Source: a virus
Length of the DNA stretch: 64,000 nucleotides
Virus record (IMG/VR): IMGVR_UViG_3300023243_000009
Location: 32,001-96,000 of that record
Direction: 5' to 3' (one strand)
The notes under the pieces were generated by a model. The model searched no databases, was not told the origin of the DNA, and saw only the letters and a list, made by a program, of their open reading frames with translations. Made by a program: the position numbers and the translations under genes. The first letter of the stretch is position 1. The number at the start of each line of letters is the position of its first letter. Below, piece by piece: positions 27,549 to 34,969 of the stretch.

Positions 27549-27617
27549 ATGGGTATTAAGGGGATGACGCATGTGGGGATCATTACTATTCCAGTCACAA
27601 CCCTATTTAACATTTAT

Positions 27618-27736
27618 CTACATTTCTTTGCAATCTATAACACATTTACACCTATAATATGTGGCTGTCTATAACTCATGGTCATCTACAATATAAGGCC
27701 ATCTATAATATGTGGCTGTCTACAACTTTATTGTAT
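27618..27736. repeat. Degenerate 17-bp tandem repeat, 7 units
   Basis: Units start with CTA(C/T)A at 27618, 27635, 27652, 27669, 27686, 27703 and 27720; units 3 and 6 are identical. Confidence 0.75.
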
Positions 27737-29343: not shown

Positions 29344-29751
29344 TTACAATTTATATTTTTGCTTGTAAACGTTGATTAAAGAATTCCCAACTCCTAATTC
29401 TAACACTTCAGCTGTATCCGGTATCCCTACTAACTTTAGGGAGGTTATGATATAGTCTATATTTTCATTAAAAATTTTCATTTTTATTTTAGAGTTAACA
29501 CGATTGGAATTTTTATATACTAAAACTACTACTTGGTTATTGTATGGTTTCTTTTTTTCAACCAATACCTTAGGATGTTTGTACCCCTTAGGTGGTGTAT
29601 ATTCTGTTTTATATGGACCATTAGGTACTTTATGTTTATTATAATACCATTTTGATACTCCCCCTATTTCAGGTTTTGAAGGAACTTCACACATAATCTG
29701 GGTGTACTTTATTAATGGTGATTTCTCTTCTATTGGTCTGCCTTTATTCAT
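29344..29751 (-). CDS. Hypothetical protein
   Basis: Starts at the repeated leader. Confidence 0.7.
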   Translation of the reverse strand: MNKGRPIEEKSPLIKYTQIMCEVPSKPEIGGVSKWYYNKHKVPNGPYKTEYTPPKGYKHPKVLVEKKKPYNNQVVVLVYKNSNRVNSKIKMKIFNENIDYIITSLKLVGIPDTAEVLELGVGNSLINVYKQKYKL

Positions 29752-29814
29752 AACCTTTATTGTTTTAATTAATTATTATACTTGAATATATGAAAAGTAA
29801 ATGTGGTAGCCCAA
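29749..29814 (-). promoter_or_regulatory. Repeated promoter+leader module, copy 9
   Basis: Same motif ending at the ATG of 29344-29751. Confidence 0.8.
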
Positions 29815-29861
29815 TTTGTTAGCGGATGTATTGTTTTTTAAGGTTGTGTGGGGTACCCATC

Positions 29862-29873
29862 GTTGTAAAAAAT
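29862..29873 (+). repeat. Lone GTT core (attI-like or secondary insertion site) at the array's left end
   Basis: GTTGTAAAAAAT without a left arm; complements the left core of the next site at 10/12. Confidence 0.55.
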
Positions 29874-30191
29874 TTAAATATTAAGTTCTTGATAGCTTAC
29901 CTTTTTCCCAAGCAATTTAACCTCTATAAACCAGTCAACATTATTACTTTTTAAAAATTTATTCCATTCTTTTTCTTTTTGCTTATAAACCGCTTTTGTT
30001 AAGTGTTTATGCCAATTTTCAAAATTCATTATATTAAACCGGTGTTCATTAATAACTATATTTTTACTATTTGCCTCACTTAACAAAAACTTCATATACA
30101 AGTCTTTTATATTAGCTTTATCGCATTCCCAAACATTGCTAACTTCTACCATATCCCATTGTTTATCGTGTATTTGTGTAATGTATATCAT
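29874..30191 (-). CDS. Cassette 1 hypothetical protein
   Basis: ORF track; stop abuts the GTT core box. Confidence 0.7.
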   Translation of the reverse strand: MIYITQIHDKQWDMVEVSNVWECDKANIKDLYMKFLLSEANSKNIVINEHRFNIMNFENWHKHLTKAVYKQKEKEWNKFLKSNNVDWFIEVKLLGKKVSYQELNI

Positions 30192-30198
30192 AATTTAA

Positions 30199-30341
30199 AC
30201 TTTTAACAACAACGTACAAAGAAAATAAACTACTATTCGCTTTCCGTTGTTCATTGTTTATTTGTGGGTTGTCGGTATTTCCGACATACCTCTATTTTTT
30301 TTAATCGTTTACTTTACTTGTACAAATCCGTTGGCAGTAAT
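30199..30341 (+). repeat. attC-like site 1
   Basis: ACTTTTAACAAC-AAC-GTACAA-AGAAAATAAAC ... GTTTACTTTAC-TTGTAC-AAATCC-GTTGGCAGTAAT. Confidence 0.8.
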
Positions 30342-30346
30342 AACTA

Positions 30347-30580
30347 CTAAGAGTACCATTTACCAATTTTCTCAAATTCTTCTACTACATCTTTACAATC
30401 TAATTGTTCTAATAAATCACAAAGCAATCCGTCAGCTATACAATGGCTTTTTGCATAATCCCTCTGTCCTTGTCTTTCTTTTAGTTCACTAATTACTGCT
30501 TTTTTAAAATCTAATTGTTTTTTGGTAAGTGCCATTTTATTAATATTTGTTTTTAATTTATCCGTTACTACTGCCAACAT
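30347..30580 (-). CDS. Cassette 2 hypothetical protein (start in the attC arm, or at the internal Met MALTKK)
   Basis: ORF track; MLAVV is encoded by the arm of site 2. Confidence 0.65.
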   Translation of the reverse strand: MLAVVTDKLKTNINKMALTKKQLDFKKAVISELKERQGQRDYAKSHCIADGLLCDLLEQLDCKDVVEEFEKIGKWYS

Positions 30581-30779
30581 CTTTTAAAGAAAAAAACTAA
30601 TTTATCCTTTTTAATAAACCAATTCTAACAAGTGGGTTATTGTTTTGGCTTTCAACTAATCTTTTACGATAATCTTGTAAACTTTCGTTTTTCTTTGGCA
30701 CTTTTATTAATTTTCCCATTTTTTACTTATTGTTTTAATTTATTCGTTTCTTTCCTTAAAAGGGTACGTTGTATTTAAT
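30567..30779 (+). repeat. attC-like site 2 (ORF in loop)
   Basis: ACTACTGCCAAC-ATC-TTTTAA ... TTAAAA-GGGTAC-GTTGTATTTAAT. Confidence 0.8.
30597..30719 (-). CDS. 40-aa ORF nested in the loop of site 2
   Basis: Hand-translated MGKLIKVPKKNESLQDYRKRLVESQNNNPLVRIGLLKRIN; A-rich leader. Confidence 0.5.
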   Translation of the reverse strand: MGKLIKVPKKNESLQDYRKRLVESQNNNPLVRIGLLKRIN

Positions 30780-30780
30780 G

Positions 30781-31038
30781 CTAATCTTTAGGCACATTAG
30801 CACAAACAGTTCCTTCTTCTTGGTGTGTTTGGTTAACAAGTGGATTGCCTCTTACGCTTAAATTAAATGGCTCAACATAACCTTCTTTAGCAAAATACCA
30901 TTTACCTTCATACTTAAATTCAAAACCGCTATCACGCATACAGATAGCCATTTCTTCACCATCACTTGTCTTTAATACAACAGATTTAAATACTTCTTCA
31001 AGTTGCATTATGTTTTTTTCGTTTACTGTAATTTTCAT
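30781..31038 (-). CDS. Cassette 3 hypothetical protein
   Basis: ORF track; stop 1 nt from the core box. Confidence 0.7.
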   Translation of the reverse strand: MKITVNEKNIMQLEEVFKSVVLKTSDGEEMAICMRDSGFEFKYEGKWYFAKEGYVEPFNLSVRGNPLVNQTHQEEGTVCANVPKD

Positions 31039-31068
31039 TTCATTTATAATTTATAGTTAATAACCCGC

Positions 31069-31213
31069 ACTAAAATACAACACCGTACAAAATTAATTGC
31101 TTGGTTTTGGTTTACTTGCGAACGTCCTCGCATCCTTTAACTTTATTTTTTATTTATTGGTTTTAGTGTTTTTTTTATCGCAACAAATCTTGTACGCGCA
31201 CGTTGTAACAAAT
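31069..31213 (+). repeat. attC-like site 3
   Basis: ACTAAAATACAAC-ACC-GTACAA-AATTAATTGC ... GCAACAAATC-TTGTAC-GCGCAC-GTTGTAACAAAT. Confidence 0.8.
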
Positions 31214-31257
31214 TATTTTTTATTAGGTTACTTTTCTGTTTGCAAATTATCGTAATT

Positions 31258-31377
31258 TCATTCCTCTTTTTCTTGGTCTGTTTGCAAAAAATCACTTGTA
31301 ACAACAACGTATAAATCATTATTACTGCTTAATGGGTTTCTAGAATAAAATTCATCTTTAAAATCTACTGGTCTCAT
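31258..31377 (-). CDS. Cassette 4 ORF (39 aa) starting inside site 4
   Basis: Hand-translated MRPVDFKDEFYSRNPLSSNNDLYVVVTSDFLQTDQEKEE. Confidence 0.45.
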   Translation of the reverse strand: MRPVDFKDEFYSRNPLSSNNDLYVVVTSDFLQTDQEKEE

Positions 31378-31435
31378 AATTAAGTTTTAGTTTATTTATC
31401 CGTAACAATGTTTATACGCATAAGTTGTAGTGCAT
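31294..31435 (+). repeat. attC-like site 4
   Basis: ACTTGTAACAAC-AAC-GTATAA-ATCATT ... AATGT-TTATAC-GCATAA-GTTGTAGTGCAT. Confidence 0.8.
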
Positions 31436-31440
31436 TAAAA

Positions 31441-31709
31441 CGACACCACAACAACGTGTATAGGTAATTATTGCCCTTGCTTCACTATCTTATAACCAAG
31501 TTCGTGCAAATCTTCAAGCAAACGAATAGTCATAGTTGTTTTAGGTGTTTTCTCAAAAAACTCATAACCTCGCTCTTTTATTATGTGCAGTAATATGTTT
31601 TGCTCTTCAGCATTTGCACCTCCAAATAATTGTTCTATCTCTTTCATAATTTATTTTATTTTAATTAAATCGGGCAAAAACTACCCATACATAAACCGTT
31701 AGCAGTAAT
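31441..31709 (+). repeat. attC-like site 5 (ORF in loop)
   Basis: CGACACCACAAC-AAC-GTGTAT-AGGTAATTATTGCCC ... GGGCAAAAACTACCC-ATACAT-AAACC-GTTAGCAGTAAT. Confidence 0.8.
31468..31647 (-). CDS. 59-aa ORF nested entirely in the loop of site 5
   Basis: Hand-translated MKEIEQLFGGANAEEQNILLHIIKERGYEFFEKTPKTTMTIRLLEDLHELGYKIVKQGQ; A-rich leader. Confidence 0.6.
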   Translation of the reverse strand: MKEIEQLFGGANAEEQNILLHIIKERGYEFFEKTPKTTMTIRLLEDLHELGYKIVKQGQ

Positions 31710-31710
31710 A

Positions 31711-31911
31711 TTAAATATCAATTGATTTAATTAATCCTTCCAGTTTTTCACGTGCGCCATCCCTAATGCTATGATAACCCCCAAGTTTGTTTTTACATAT
31801 ATCCATTGTGTTAATTAATGCATTTATCATTTGTGCTTTATCAGCCATACTAATGCTAACAACGTGTATATCACATTGCTGTTCTGTTTCTAGGTCTTTA
31901 CTTTTATCCAT
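31711..31911 (-). CDS. Cassette 6 hypothetical protein starting inside site 6
   Basis: ORF track; QCDIHVVSIS is encoded by the arm. Confidence 0.7.
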   Translation of the reverse strand: MDKSKDLETEQQCDIHVVSISMADKAQMINALINTMDICKNKLGGYHSIRDGAREKLEGLIKSIDI

Positions 31912-31989
31912 TTTATTTAGTTTATTACTTATTAAAAATTATTGTTTATCTACTCGCAACGCTACATACACAAATACGTTATATGCAAT
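31849..31989 (+). repeat. attC-like site 6
   Basis: ACTAATGCTAAC-AAC-GTGTAT-ATCACATTGC ... GCAACGCTAC-ATACAC-AAATAC-GTTATATGCAAT. Confidence 0.8.
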
Positions 31990-31990
31990 G

Positions 31991-32230
31991 CTAAATGTTT
32001 AATTGCTCTACTCGCCACGTTCGGTTTTTATGGTCTATCCATAGGCTTCTGCAATTTAATTGGTTTATTCTATCGCCGTAAATGTTTGTTACAAATCTAA
32101 AACCTCTCTTTTGTGCTTCTTCAGCGTCAATGCTTATAAATAATTGTCTGTACTTATCACGCACTTCAAATAACAACGTATAAAAAAAATTGCTACTTTC
32201 TCCATTTTTATAATCTAATTCTTTAAACAT
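31991..32230 (-). CDS. Cassette 7 hypothetical protein starting inside site 7
   Basis: ORF track; NFFYTLLFEV is encoded by the arm. Confidence 0.7.
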   Translation of the reverse strand: MFKELDYKNGESSNFFYTLLFEVRDKYRQLFISIDAEEAQKRGFRFVTNIYGDRINQLNCRSLWIDHKNRTWRVEQLNI

Positions 32231-32302
32231 AATTTATGATTTTATTTATTAATTTCACTATAATTAAACGCAACATTTCTTATACAATGCGTTGTAAACC
32301 AT
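32163..32302 (+). repeat. attC-like site 7
   Basis: ACTTCAAATAAC-AAC-GTATAA-AAAAAATTGC ... GCAACATTTC-TTATAC-AATGC-GTTGTAAACCAT. Confidence 0.8.
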
Positions 32303-32303
32303 A

Positions 32304-32471
32304 TTATTGTTTAGTTCCATCCATTAAATTACAAGCCTCGCATTGTCTTTGGCAAGTGCTTTCATAATGTGGGTTCTTGTGGTCATAACAATAAAACGAT
32401 TCAACAACACCGTATATAAAGCATTTTTTCTTTACTTTCTTTTTACTAAACAACCTACTAATCAAACTCAT
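32304..32471 (-). CDS. Cassette 8 Cys-rich 55-aa protein starting inside site 8
   Basis: Hand-translated MSLISRLFSKKKVKKKCFIYGVVESFYCYDHKNPHYESTCQRQCEACNLMDGTKQ. Confidence 0.6.
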   Translation of the reverse strand: MSLISRLFSKKKVKKKCFIYGVVESFYCYDHKNPHYESTCQRQCEACNLMDGTKQ

Positions 32472-32544
32472 TTTTTATCTATTAATTAGTTTTGTTGCTT
32501 AATTCAAGGTCGCAACGTACCTTATACAATTCGTTGGTAGTTAT
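32396..32544 (+). repeat. attC-like site 8
   Basis: ACGATTCAACAAC-ACC-GTATAT ... TTATAC-AATTC-GTTGGTAGTTAT. Confidence 0.75.
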
Positions 32545-32551
32545 TTTTTAT

Positions 32552-32698
32552 TTATAGATAATTAAAGATTATTATTAATAATAAAAAGCCTATTAATAGT
32601 AAAAAAGTAAATTTAATATCAAAAAAACAAATGCCAACATCTTTTATAACAAATTGCTTTTTATTTACTTTTTTACTAAATTGTTTATATTCTATCAT
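32552..32698 (-). CDS. Cassette 9 single-TM 48-aa protein starting inside site 9
   Basis: Hand-translated MIEYKQFSKKVNKKQFVIKDVGICFFDIKFTFLLLIGFLLLIIIFNYL. Confidence 0.55.
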   Translation of the reverse strand: MIEYKQFSKKVNKKQFVIKDVGICFFDIKFTFLLLIGFLLLIIIFNYL

Positions 32699-32766
32699 TT
32701 ATGTTATATTTATTTACTAATTATTAATTTACGCAAAATGCAATAAAAGGGTACGTTGTAAGTAAT
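32627..32766 (+). repeat. attC-like site 9
   Basis: ACAAATGCCAAC-ATC-TTTTAT-AACAAATTGC ... GCAAAATGCA-ATAAAA-GGGTAC-GTTGTAAGTAAT. Confidence 0.8.
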
Positions 32767-32774
32767 ATTATTTA

Positions 32775-33074
32775 CTATCTTTTTGCTGCACTTGTAGAGC
32801 TACTGCTTAACGCGCCTATACCTAATATAAATCCGAAGTCATACCAACCTCCGTTATTATTTACAGCATATATTGCTATATCGCTACTAAACAAACTACC
32901 TATCCATGCAAATGGTGCAATCATTCCGTGCCAAAGTCCTCCCCAAAATCCATAAGGAGCAACTGTGGTACACGCTTCTATATTAGAGACATCGGCACAT
33001 CCCGTAAATAAGACTACAACCAACAACGTGTATAAAAAATACTTACTAATTCTGTTTAAATTTACTTTTTTCAT
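32775..33074 (-). CDS. Cassette 10 lipoprotein-like membrane protein starting inside site 10
   Basis: LFTGC lipobox; GFWGGLWHG...NNNGGWYDFGF motif. Confidence 0.75.
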   Translation of the reverse strand: MKKVNLNRISKYFLYTLLVVVLFTGCADVSNIEACTTVAPYGFWGGLWHGMIAPFAWIGSLFSSDIAIYAVNNNGGWYDFGFILGIGALSSSSTSAAKR

Positions 33075-33154
33075 CTTTACTTATTTTAATTATTAATATT
33101 AAATTCTATTTATTTTTACTCGTACATTTTATACACAAATACGTTGGCAGTCAT
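33013..33154 (+). repeat. attC-like site 10
   Basis: ACTACAACCAAC-AAC-GTGTAT-AAAA ... TTTT-ATACAC-AAATAC-GTTGGCAGTCAT. Confidence 0.8.
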
Positions 33155-33183
33155 TATTGTAAAAAGGCCACATATATTACGGC

Positions 33184-33393
33184 CTATATCGTGTCTAAAT
33201 GATAACTAATTATTCTTTCTTTTATTTCTTTGTCAGACAATTCTTTTATGGATTGACAATTAAATATGTATTTTTTATTATCAAATAAATCAATTAAATT
33301 ATATTCTGCTGAATAAGTATAACTACCGTGATTAACAAAAATTCTAAAATTTTCATTATCATTATTGTGTTTTACTACTAGATTATTTATCAT
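33184..33393 (-). CDS. Cassette 11 hypothetical protein c
   Basis: ORF track. Confidence 0.6.
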   Translation of the reverse strand: MINNLVVKHNNDNENFRIFVNHGSYTYSAEYNLIDLFDNKKYIFNCQSIKELSDKEIKERIISYHLDTI

Positions 33394-33450
33394 TTTTTTT
33401 TAATATATACTTATTTAAAATAGCTTTTAATTTTAATTTTTTTATTCATT

Positions 33451-33672
33451 TTATTTACCGCAATGCATTTCACAAAGACCATGTTTATTTTCAAATATAA
33501 CTCCTTTATTTGTTTTATTACAATCGTGTTCCACTATACAAGCAAACATATTAGTAGCTTCATTAGAAGCTCCTTGGTTTATCTTATTCCAAGGATGTTT
33601 AAATAACTCAATTTGGTTTTTACAATTACAACAGCATTCACCACTATGCCATCCTTTATCACATTTTATCAT
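33451..33672 (-). CDS. Cassette 11 Cys-rich protein b
   Basis: GECCCNCKNQ...HGLCEMH motifs. Confidence 0.65.
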   Translation of the reverse strand: MIKCDKGWHSGECCCNCKNQIELFKHPWNKINQGASNEATNMFACIVEHDCNKTNKGVIFENKHGLCEMHCGK

Positions 33673-33800
33673 TAGTTCTGGTTTTGTTTTTTATCAAAAA
33701 TATTTAGCATATCTATTAAGTAGTAGATGGTCATAATTAAAAAATACACCCAAAATATAGGGTTGGTTAAAATAAAAAACTTATCTCCGTTTGTGTTCAT
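33672..33800 (-). CDS. Cassette 11 small TM protein a (42 aa)
   Basis: Hand-translated MNTNGDKFFILTNPIFWVYFLIMTIYYLIDMLNIFDKKQNQN; TAATG overlap. Confidence 0.5.
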   Translation of the reverse strand: MNTNGDKFFILTNPIFWVYFLIMTIYYLIDMLNIFDKKQNQN

Positions 33801-33849
33801 ATATTATGTATTTTAATTTTAAATAAAATTAATGGGGTTTTATAAAATA

Positions 33850-33981
33850 ACTGCAACCAACAGCGTGTATAATTTATTAACAAATTTACTAAATTAACAT
33901 CAATCTACCAAATCTATTTTTATAGTGTACTTTTATTAATCACATAGTTAACAAACTATACACGCATAAGTTATATGCAAT
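33850..33981 (+). repeat. attC-like site 11
   Basis: ACTGCAACCAAC-AGC-GTGTAT-AATTTATTAAC ... GTTAACAAACT-ATACAC-GCATAA-GTTATATGCAAT. Confidence 0.8.
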
Positions 33982-34169
33982 TAATCGGTGGTCTGTGTTA
34001 TTTTAACACCTCCTTGTATGCTGCCAAACGCACACCCTGCAAATAATAACCAATTCCATCCATATTCAAATGTTCCGTTTATAAAATCAACAATATGTAA
34101 TGCTAATCCTATTCCGCATACAAGAAGTAGCGTCATTCCCCAAATAAAAGTTCTTGTTTCTTTAGTCAT
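33981..34169 (-). CDS. Cassette 12 two-TM membrane protein
   Basis: ORF track; stop overlaps the core box. Confidence 0.65.
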   Translation of the reverse strand: MTKETRTFIWGMTLLLVCGIGLALHIVDFINGTFEYGWNWLLFAGCAFGSIQGGVKITQTTD

Positions 34170-34224
34170 TTTTATAAGTTTTATTTATTAATTAATATTT
34201 GTTTCTATTTATACGCTACTAGGC

Positions 34225-34247
34225 ATACACAATGCTTTGTAAAAAAT
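34225..34247 (+). repeat. Degenerate attC-like right arm (GTT mutated to TTT)
   Basis: ATACAC-AATGC-TTTGTAAAAAAT; left arm not confidently located. Confidence 0.55.
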
Positions 34248-34390
34248 TAAACCTTACTTACTGTTTTTTTAATAAAGTAATCGTATTGTCCTTTTAATTC
34301 TATTAATTCTTTAGAGGCTTGTCTTCTGCAAGCTTTCCTATAAGCTGGGTTTTCTTGCTCCCACCATTTAAATCCTGTAAATCCTTTCAT
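34247..34390 (-). CDS. Cassette 13 hypothetical protein (47 aa)
   Basis: Hand-translated MKGFTGFKWWEQENPAYRKACRRQASKELIELKGQYDYFIKKTVSKV; stop overlaps the core box. Confidence 0.55.
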   Translation of the reverse strand: MKGFTGFKWWEQENPAYRKACRRQASKELIELKGQYDYFIKKTVSKV

Positions 34391-34397
34391 CTGTTTA

Positions 34398-34548
34398 AAA
34401 TTTCACAACAACGCACAAAGAAAATAAACTACTTATCGCTTTCCGTTGTTTAGTTATTATTAATTTACGTTCTAATAAGTATAATCTAAATTTATATTTT
34501 ATTTTATAAATCATCGTTTACGTTTTTTATATATTCCTTAAAAGGTAC
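34398..34548 (+). repeat. Degenerate terminal attC-like site 13
   Basis: Left arm and first part of the loop nearly identical to site 1; right arm broken, no GTT core. Confidence 0.6.
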
Positions 34549-34549
34549 T

Positions 34550-34969
34550 TTAACTACAATATTTAATAAAGTTATCCAGCAACCCTTTTATATTATCTGC
34601 ACCAACGGGGTTTGCGGAGTGTATAAATATCCTGGGTAATTTTTTCTGGTTGTCCATGCAATAATCTACTAACCATTGGGCACAATCCATTCCTGTTTTT
34701 TCCTTGTAACTCTCACCACGCCATTCTTGAAATTTTTTACTTTCATCATAATCTTCCCAAAAATATTCAGGTGTATAATGCTCATCCGCTAAATCGTGGT
34801 CGAAAGAAATAGCATCAGGTAACCCAAATATTCCAATCCATTTTACAAACTGTTCATAATTCAAAACCCAATTTATATTATAATCTCCACCATCCGCATC
34901 TGTTGGTACTTTACCTTCTTCATTTATAAAAGGGTTTCTAATATCGTCTAACCAAAGTAAGTTCTTCAT
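34550..34969 (-). CDS. Cyclic-phosphate-processing receiver-like domain protein
   Basis: LWLDDIRNP, ISFDHDL, TGMDCAQWL and IHSANPVG motifs. Confidence 0.75.
   Translation of the reverse strand: MKNLLWLDDIRNPFINEEGKVPTDADGGDYNINWVLNYEQFVKWIGIFGLPDAISFDHDLADEHYTPEYFWEDYDESKKFQEWRGESYKEKTGMDCAQWLVDYCMDNQKKLPRIFIHSANPVGADNIKGLLDNFIKYCS

Follow-up and report, generated by a model that had tools for sequence, protein, structure and literature searches.

A probable integron-like, integrase-less cassette array in a Flavobacteriaceae-type phage, with whole genes in two hairpin loops

A minus-strand array of attC-like hairpins in a phage genome

The window analyzed here is a stretch of 64,000 nucleotides that forms part of a virus record of 138,667 bases (139 kb), a Flavobacteriaceae-type phage estimated to be 85% complete; unless a contig is named, coordinates are those of the window. 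Its G+C content is ~30%, almost every gene lies on the minus strand, and Cellulophaga phages give matches to single small window ORFs. Between 29862 and 33156, on the minus strand, we find a core array of about 11 attC-like sites within 3.3 kb, designated e0 to e10. Read along that strand from 33.16 to 29.86 kb, an element consists of CAACG, a 5-6-nt bulge, a variable box, a loop, the complement of the box, 2-3 nt, and TGTTG. When the G|TT positions of e0 to e10 (29862, 30330, 30768, 31202, 31424, 31698, 31978, 32291, 32533, 32755, and 33143) are used as borders, all minus-strand ORFs of the array fall within single cassettes. Degenerate or chimeric sites, e11 to e13, follow at 33851..34560 on the same strand.

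Inverted AAC/GTT triplets are present in all 10 window sites as well as in 44 bacterial sites described below. Eight normal-sized window elements can be aligned, and their consensus fold has 16 pairs, 8 of which show compensatory changes, so that both the anatomy of the sites and their covariation are shown directly. The AAC-to-GTT length is 125-133 nt in the normal neighbors, compared with 198 nt in site 2 and 255 nt in site 5. A covariance model built from the eight window sites was scanned against the 139-kb genome and against Flavobacteriaceae loci; within the phage genome, the array region was the sole place with sites. The model replaced a loose arm-pair scanner, which was dropped as its hits (~160-200) were about equal in number to those in shuffled sequence. 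An Rfam search of 29500-34800 returned no match, and Rfam is without any attC family. A promoter reading of the sites was rejected, as the Bacteroidetes -7 promoter motif TAnnTTTG occurs in just two sites of the array; T-run terminators were looked for at the sites, and none was found.

Several other features of the region were recorded. Upstream of the array, at 27617-27718, is an unexplained 51-nt direct repeat in three overlapping copies with offsets of 34 and 17 nt (motif TCTATAAC...). Just past the array, a cREC_REC domain (PF20274, E = 5e-20), a type of receiver domain linked to cyclic-phosphate processing, is found in a 139-aa protein encoded at 34550-34969. Cassette 10 holds a 99-aa predicted lipoprotein (32775-33074), with a signal peptide that, read by eye, ends in LFTGC and a hydrophobic signal segment that is encoded by the hairpin arm; the protein matches PHROG 30702 and genes of Cellulophaga phages phi17:2 and phi4:1. 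The 79-aa gene of cassette 7 (31979-32291) is 83% identical to one in the unrelated, 53-kb Cellulophaga phage Nekkels_1 (L007, 3012-3251). There, the right-arm motif is kept within the coding sequence with no pairing left arm, and the similarity stops at the ATAAC core of the next site.

Two oversized hairpins enclose complete reading frames

Site 5, an oversized attC-like hairpin on the minus strand (31442..31710), measures 255 nt from AAC to GTT. In gene sense, its upstream arm occupies 31672-31700 and its downstream arm 31449-31476; these pair over 4+13+6 bp in a single-strand DNA fold, and the stem is retained in the centroid structure. Nested within it is a complete minus-strand gene of 59 aa (31468..31647), of unknown function and with an A-rich leader, whose stop codon (31468-31470) and last codons are encoded by the 20-bp distal stem (31457-31476). 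With the G|TT crossovers of sites 4 and 5 as its borders, cassette 5 (31425..31698, minus strand) is 274 bp long; the hairpin accounts for 255 nt of it, and the "body" is reduced to 11 nt (31433-31443) lying between the two sites' 9-bp core arms.

Site 2, likewise oversized and on the minus strand (30568..30781), spans 198 nt from AAC to GTT (30575-30771) and pairs over 6+17 bp in the minimum-energy fold. It encloses a complete, basic minus-strand ORF of 40 aa with an A-rich leader (30597..30719), the stop codon of which adjoins the stem. Cassette 2 (30331..30768, minus strand) comprises this hairpin and a body with a second minus-strand ORF (30347-30580) of 77 aa, or of 62 aa from a start at 30535.

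A sequence-only reading of the locus had reported complete minus-strand ORFs with A-rich leaders in the two oversized sites, and both held, in coordinates as in length. It had placed the stop codon within the left stem, which held for the 59-aa ORF, whereas that of the 40-aa ORF merely abuts its stem. The claims that about 5 nt separate sites 4 and 5 and that cassette 5 has no coding space outside its hairpin also held, the former equating to the 11 nt between core arms that make up the whole body.

The 59-aa gene is conserved, with 39 homologue clusters at 67-98% identity that are mostly 57-60 aa in length and conserved end to end, and with dN/dS values of 0.07 against its counterpart in viral contig L008 and 0.11 against that in contig L009. 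AlphaFold2 gives a confident model of three helices (pLDDT 89). This had no Foldseek match in the PDB, and a wide VIA search gave Z scores of 4.1 or less; the fold is uninformative. A tblastn search of cultured phage records found no match to the protein, which was also not found in the 401 Flavobacteriaceae genomes searched, and PHROGs and Pfam returned nothing for either the 59-aa or the 40-aa ORF. Five clusters are related to the 40-aa ORF, 39-43 aa in length except for one relative of 63 aa in which the stop codon is lost and the frame reads through the arm; blocks at both the N and the C terminus are invariant. That this ORF is a gene is probable on support that remains thin, and expression of both nested ORFs is inferred only.

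Homologues of the 59-aa protein occur in three contexts: inside the same stems, in a cassette body, and without any site. In L008, the gene lies between the same arms as in window site 5, with a G-C pair of the stem changed to A-T on both sides, and the coding-side change turns a Gln codon into a stop. The window and L008 are 85.8% identical over the unit that runs from the C of the first AAC up to the AA of the following one, and identity falls to 45-50% outside it. Elsewhere in the same contig (L008:2720-2965), a cassette ORF begins with a GTPase P-loop-like stretch, GHIGHGKT; judged by eye alone, its start may resemble the N terminus of elongation factor Tu. In contig L059, a 64%-identical homologue of the 59-aa protein is found in the cassette body, behind a compact 75-nt site with a fold of -17.7 kcal/mol (z = -5.3). 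The copy in L009 has no site and is flanked by a 21-nt direct repeat. This repeat, which brackets the gene within L009:2380-2600, is AAACCAAAACAAAGAAGATGA, and it suggests that the gene was inserted via short-homology recombination.

The hairpin of site 2 and its ORF recur in viral contig L094 with 195/197 bases identical, exactly from CAACG to GATGTTG, between unrelated flanks; the body next to the site also differs from that of the window. Both hairpins, with their cargo, behave in other viral contigs as discrete modules ending exactly at the AAC/GTT cores.

Related arrays in Flavobacteriaceae adjoin a tyrosine recombinase gene

A pattern with 20 specified bases, derived from two window sites, was searched in a species-representative genome collection. 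It matched 43 stretches, 42 of them in Flavobacteriaceae-type records, where chance would yield about one per 596 Gb. The covariance model identified 86 sites in Flavobacteriaceae loci, forming dense same-strand arrays with units of ~143 nt, and among 44 bacterial sites, 10 of the 16 consensus pairs show compensatory changes. Genes in these arrays lie between the sites and are antisense to the site model. A tyrosine recombinase gene abuts the first array site in each of the three genomes checked (3/3), and the family link between the phage sites and recombinase-headed arrays is thereby shown. One array-adjacent recombinase ORF is located at L053:7332-8501.

The best match of this host recombinase is the integron-integrase model TIGR02249, at 213 bits, which is under the cut-off of 265, and XerA nearly ties. 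The protein aligns end to end with XerA (5hxy) and over two stretches only with IntI4 (2a3v); Xer/IntI-like, rather than IntI, is in all likelihood the proper term for it. No PF00589 tyrosine recombinase was found in the 139-kb phage record, which is estimated to be 85% complete. The phage sites belong to a Flavobacteriaceae family tied to an Xer-like recombinase and not to canonical IntI integrons.

Some bacterial sites are long as well. A conserved variant of ~206 nt was found at L015:1958-2163, L050:787-992, L034:4206-4412, L049:753-949, L053:8886-9091, and L010:4288-4496. These were ruled out as gene carriers: they contain no ORF, and the internal insert is a conserved, structured, and strongly palindromic one.

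Core extensions, folding strand, and chimeric sites

In the window, the pentanucleotide that follows a GTT agrees with the complement of the one preceding the AAC of the next site at 38/50 positions, whereas the control comparison with the site's own AAC arm gives 17/50 (permutation P = 2e-5). Across 30 adjacent pairs in the bacterial arrays, the corresponding values are 133/150 and 60/150. Crossover within the triplet would be expected to leave such a composite core; the pattern itself is shown, and the recombination behind it is inferred.

The gene-sense strand folds better than the other strand in 9/10 window sites and carries the G-T pairs, in agreement with the bottom strand that is published as the recombined one (PMC5027507). 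Phage genes are on this folding strand and start in the loop or lie wholly within it, the reverse of the host arrays, and the same orientation of gene and site is seen in phage contigs L008 and L059. The stem of the L box shows no consistent extrahelical base in the consensus, and the unpaired spacer is asymmetric, with 5-6 nt on one side and 2-3 nt on the other. Computed pairing probabilities of the core box are 0.035 for site 5 and 0.82 for site 2, with 0.003-0.75 for the normal-sized neighbors. We judge both large sites likely to be within the range of their neighbors in foldability, an assessment that rests on in silico folding probability alone. Their stems are longer, with about 23 paired positions versus 16 in normal sites.

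Cassette order varies among phages, with e9 followed directly by e1 in contigs L104 and L122. Not all rearrangements are of the simple kind. Site e13 (34400-34560) is a chimera of an e2/e9-type left arm, with TAAAG replacing CAACG, and an e1-type right half that is 82% identical to site 1 (30208-30262); its arms are unpaired, and it is probably the product of deletion or recombination inside loops. A second chimeric site, in contig L098, joins halves from different site types at a junction within the loop. The two chimeras show that other recombination also acts here, and together with the body swaps (site 2 versus L094, and L065 versus L073, described below) they need events beyond a single AAC crossover.

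The same stem holds different cargo

To find further copies of the stems, viral contigs were searched with exact 15-16-mers from the arms; most hits were due to chance, and a context filter was applied. The site-5 stem type is present in nine viral contigs, and the ORFs in their loops form five groups that show no significant similarity to one another. Over these contigs, the 20-bp stem retains 16-19 Watson-Crick and 2 G-T pairs, with compensatory changes at positions 17-19. Five of the sites are nested, with TAA and a T-T mismatch at stem position 14, while four are read-through sites, with AAA and pairing at this position, and there the ORFs run on into the body. The nested and read-through states thus differ by one base of the stem (TAA versus AAA).

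Among these contigs, L065:7551-7971 and L073:7893-8315 carry the same hairpin with a 90%-identical loop-encoded N-terminal module, fused in frame to unrelated body-encoded C termini; the hairpin, the cargo, and both core extensions are held in common, and the bodies differ. Conversely, the loop modules of L066 and L070 are unrelated and their Cys-rich bodies similar. A stem-encoded linker peptide containing KLPIH recurs among the contigs with this stem.

That the same stems hold different cargo is shown. We consider it likely that the loop serves as a cargo slot, the recombination and expression that this entails being inferred from sequence alone. The nesting of whole genes is the end of a continuum, as most phage cassette genes start inside their own hairpin. 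The sequence-only reading had proposed the terminal loop as a cargo slot, and this is both supported and sharpened by the conserved genes, the three contexts, the cognate arms, and the five unrelated cargos of one stem type. It had asked for a homologue search, which has now placed relatives of the 59-aa protein both inside and outside such sites, and had named two findings that would refute it: a lack of expression or conservation of the nested ORFs, and an origin of the long sites as two half-sites fused by a deletion. On the first, both ORFs are conserved, the 40-aa one with thin support, and their expression is inferred only; on the second, the arms are cognate over the 20-bp stem, with compensatory changes in nine contigs.

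Comparison with integrons and other exchange systems

The sites share with integron attC sites the AAC/GTT triplets at the hairpin base, inner boxes that vary but remain complementary, a spacer left unpaired, and a terminal structure that is variable. As in integrons, one of the two strands is the better at folding, the core extensions on either side of a cassette match each other, and, in the hosts, same-strand arrays adjoin a tyrosine recombinase. There are also differences. Published attC sites measure 57-141 bp, with terminal structures of 3-100 nt (PMC5371416, PMC7439510, PMC4889954), and the classical set compared here includes Vibrio VCR-type sites with large terminal structures, whereas sites 2 and 5 reach 198 and 255 nt, and entire proteins are encoded in their loops of roughly 150-200 nt. 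A classical cassette gene is adjacent to its site, on the strand that does not fold (the top strand), while phage genes occupy the folding strand and begin within the site. In attC, extrahelical bases near L'' mark the recombined strand (PMC5027507); here, no clear bases of this kind are seen, and asymmetry is found instead in the spacer and in the G-T pairs of one strand. In contrast to a complete integron, there is no adjacent IntI with the IntI-specific extra domain: the host recombinase does not reach the integron-integrase cut-off, and no recombinase was matched in the phage record. The suggestion, made with the cargo-slot idea, that the arrangement is unlike classical integrons held, with the refinement that the sites form a Flavobacteriaceae family associated with an Xer-like recombinase and that nesting is the end of a continuum.

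Qi et al. (2023) described CALINs, clusters of attC sites without an integrase, in virulent phages, including a phage of Polaribacter (Flavobacteriaceae), and some of the phage sites recombined with attI1 under IntI1 (PMC9892861). Like a CALIN, our array brings at least two attC-type sites into close proximity without a nearby integrase gene, although here site identity comes from our own covariance model and not from IntegronFinder. The published CALINs have 2-4 sites with ORFs between them, and the passages of that paper bearing on the question make no mention of genes inside a site, oversized sites, or shared stems with different cargo. Cassettes without genes, and transcription that starts within attC, are known (bioRxiv 10.1101/2023.11.21.568050), but in the literature that we searched, no paper describes whole genes inside an attC loop.

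Nivina et al. (2020) embedded synthetic attC sites, with terminal loops of 3-21 nt, in protein-coding sequence (PMC7439510). As in those constructs, the site arms here double as coding sequence, and an arm can serve as an in-frame peptide linker. The present sites differ in being natural, in having a loop that holds a whole ORF or N-terminal module, and in having a stem that encodes a recurring peptide (KLPIH). A further parallel is offered by the PeSL (promoter-stem-loop) motifs of T4-type phages (PMC2839356, PMC4122927): these, too, recur on either side of small, variable ORFs within a plastic part of a large phage genome, and the gain and loss of individual genes is linked to them. PeSLs, however, consist of a conserved promoter consensus and a terminator-like stem-loop and work by way of homology. 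The sites described here vary in sequence, covary in structure, have AAC/GTT cores, and belong to a family common to recombinase-headed bacterial arrays.

Proposed model and alternative explanations

The region is most likely an integrase-less, integron-like phage cassette array with whole genes in two hairpin loops. In our model, each cassette would end where an imperfect hairpin has its base, at the conserved AAC/GTT triplets. A tyrosine recombinase of host type, Xer/IntI-like, would act on the hairpin in trans and would need only the hairpin base (core box, unpaired spacer, and inner box), and the loop would therefore be free. As phage genes are on the folding strand, the hairpin lies upstream of its own gene, and the terminal loop would supply an A-rich translation start and often the first codons. 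For very short genes, the whole gene would fit into the loop, as it does in cassettes 2 and 5; in the latter, the last residues and the stop codon would be encoded by the distal stem. Gene and recombination site would in this way become one inseparable module of about 200-270 bp, with the usual gene position shrunk to 11 nt in cassette 5. The folded cassette circle would be a stem with two loops, and coding sequence would be possible in either or both. Site-specific recombination, the action of a host enzyme in trans, and the ability of the long sites to recombine still are inferred, as there are no excision data.

The strongest alternative, which we nevertheless hold to be unlikely, is that the arms are short shared homologies for general or phage-encoded homologous recombination, as with the PeSLs by which ORFs are shuffled in hyperplastic regions of T4-type phages, and that the hairpin shape is incidental. 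In its favor, the phage record has no site-specific recombinase (no PF00589 match), the chimeric sites e13 and L098 combine halves of different site types at junctions inside the loop, and PeSL-mediated shuffling is documented in phages (PMC2839356, PMC4122927). Against it, module boundaries fall at AAC/GTT cores of 4-5 nt and not in long homology. The inner boxes vary between sites and covary within each, which homology-driven exchange does not require, and the core-extension signature and the recombinase-headed bacterial arrays point to site-specific exchange. Finally, the promoter motif TAnnTTTG is found in just two sites.

A second alternative, very unlikely but not exclusive with the cassette model, is that the arms around the nested genes matter chiefly as RNA, the 5' and 3' ends of a one-gene mRNA segment pairing to control stability, processing, or translation, with any recombination role being historical. 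It is in keeping with a phage mRNA that corresponds to the better-folding strand, G-T pairs (G-U in RNA) included, and with a start region in an unpaired A-rich loop. However, the site family is antisense to the genes in bacteria, so a role in sense RNA cannot explain its conservation; there is no Rfam family match, and the cassette signature and core-bounded modules are DNA-level features.

The view that the long sites are decayed relics without function as a unit, whether fused half-sites or normal sites split by accidental insertion, can draw on the fused chimera nearby (34400-34560) and on the 59-aa gene outside such sites in L009 and L059, but is again very unlikely, for the arms are specific partners over about 20 bp whose pairing is kept by compensatory changes in nine contigs, the hairpin and gene are intact at 86-99% identity in other phages with different neighbors, the longer stems of sites 2 and 5 suggest compensation for a large loop, and the arms of these sites do not match different normal sites better than each other.

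Implications for cassette biology and phage gene exchange

Integron biology treats the attC terminal loop as a short structural spacer, and the way in which genes come to be attached to attC sites in the first place is a long-standing question. The cassette array described here offers natural loops with whole genes under selection, identical stems with unrelated cargo, and the same loop module on different bodies, providing sequence pairs for testing cassette birth and module exchange, as well as natural counterparts to the engineered protein-coding attC sites. A bolder reading, which we raise only as a possibility, is that of a two-slot carrier, in which the terminal loop and the classical body are both loadable and exchange can take place on either side of the stem. 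If this is true, phages would shuffle loop-encoded N-terminal against body-encoded C-terminal modules in frame via a stem-encoded linker, which would amount to natural attC-based domain shuffling and give a live view of genes becoming paired with attC sites. More generally, we infer that nested cassettes may be a compact way for marine Flavobacteriaceae phages to trade very small genes, probably by borrowing the recombination system of their hosts.
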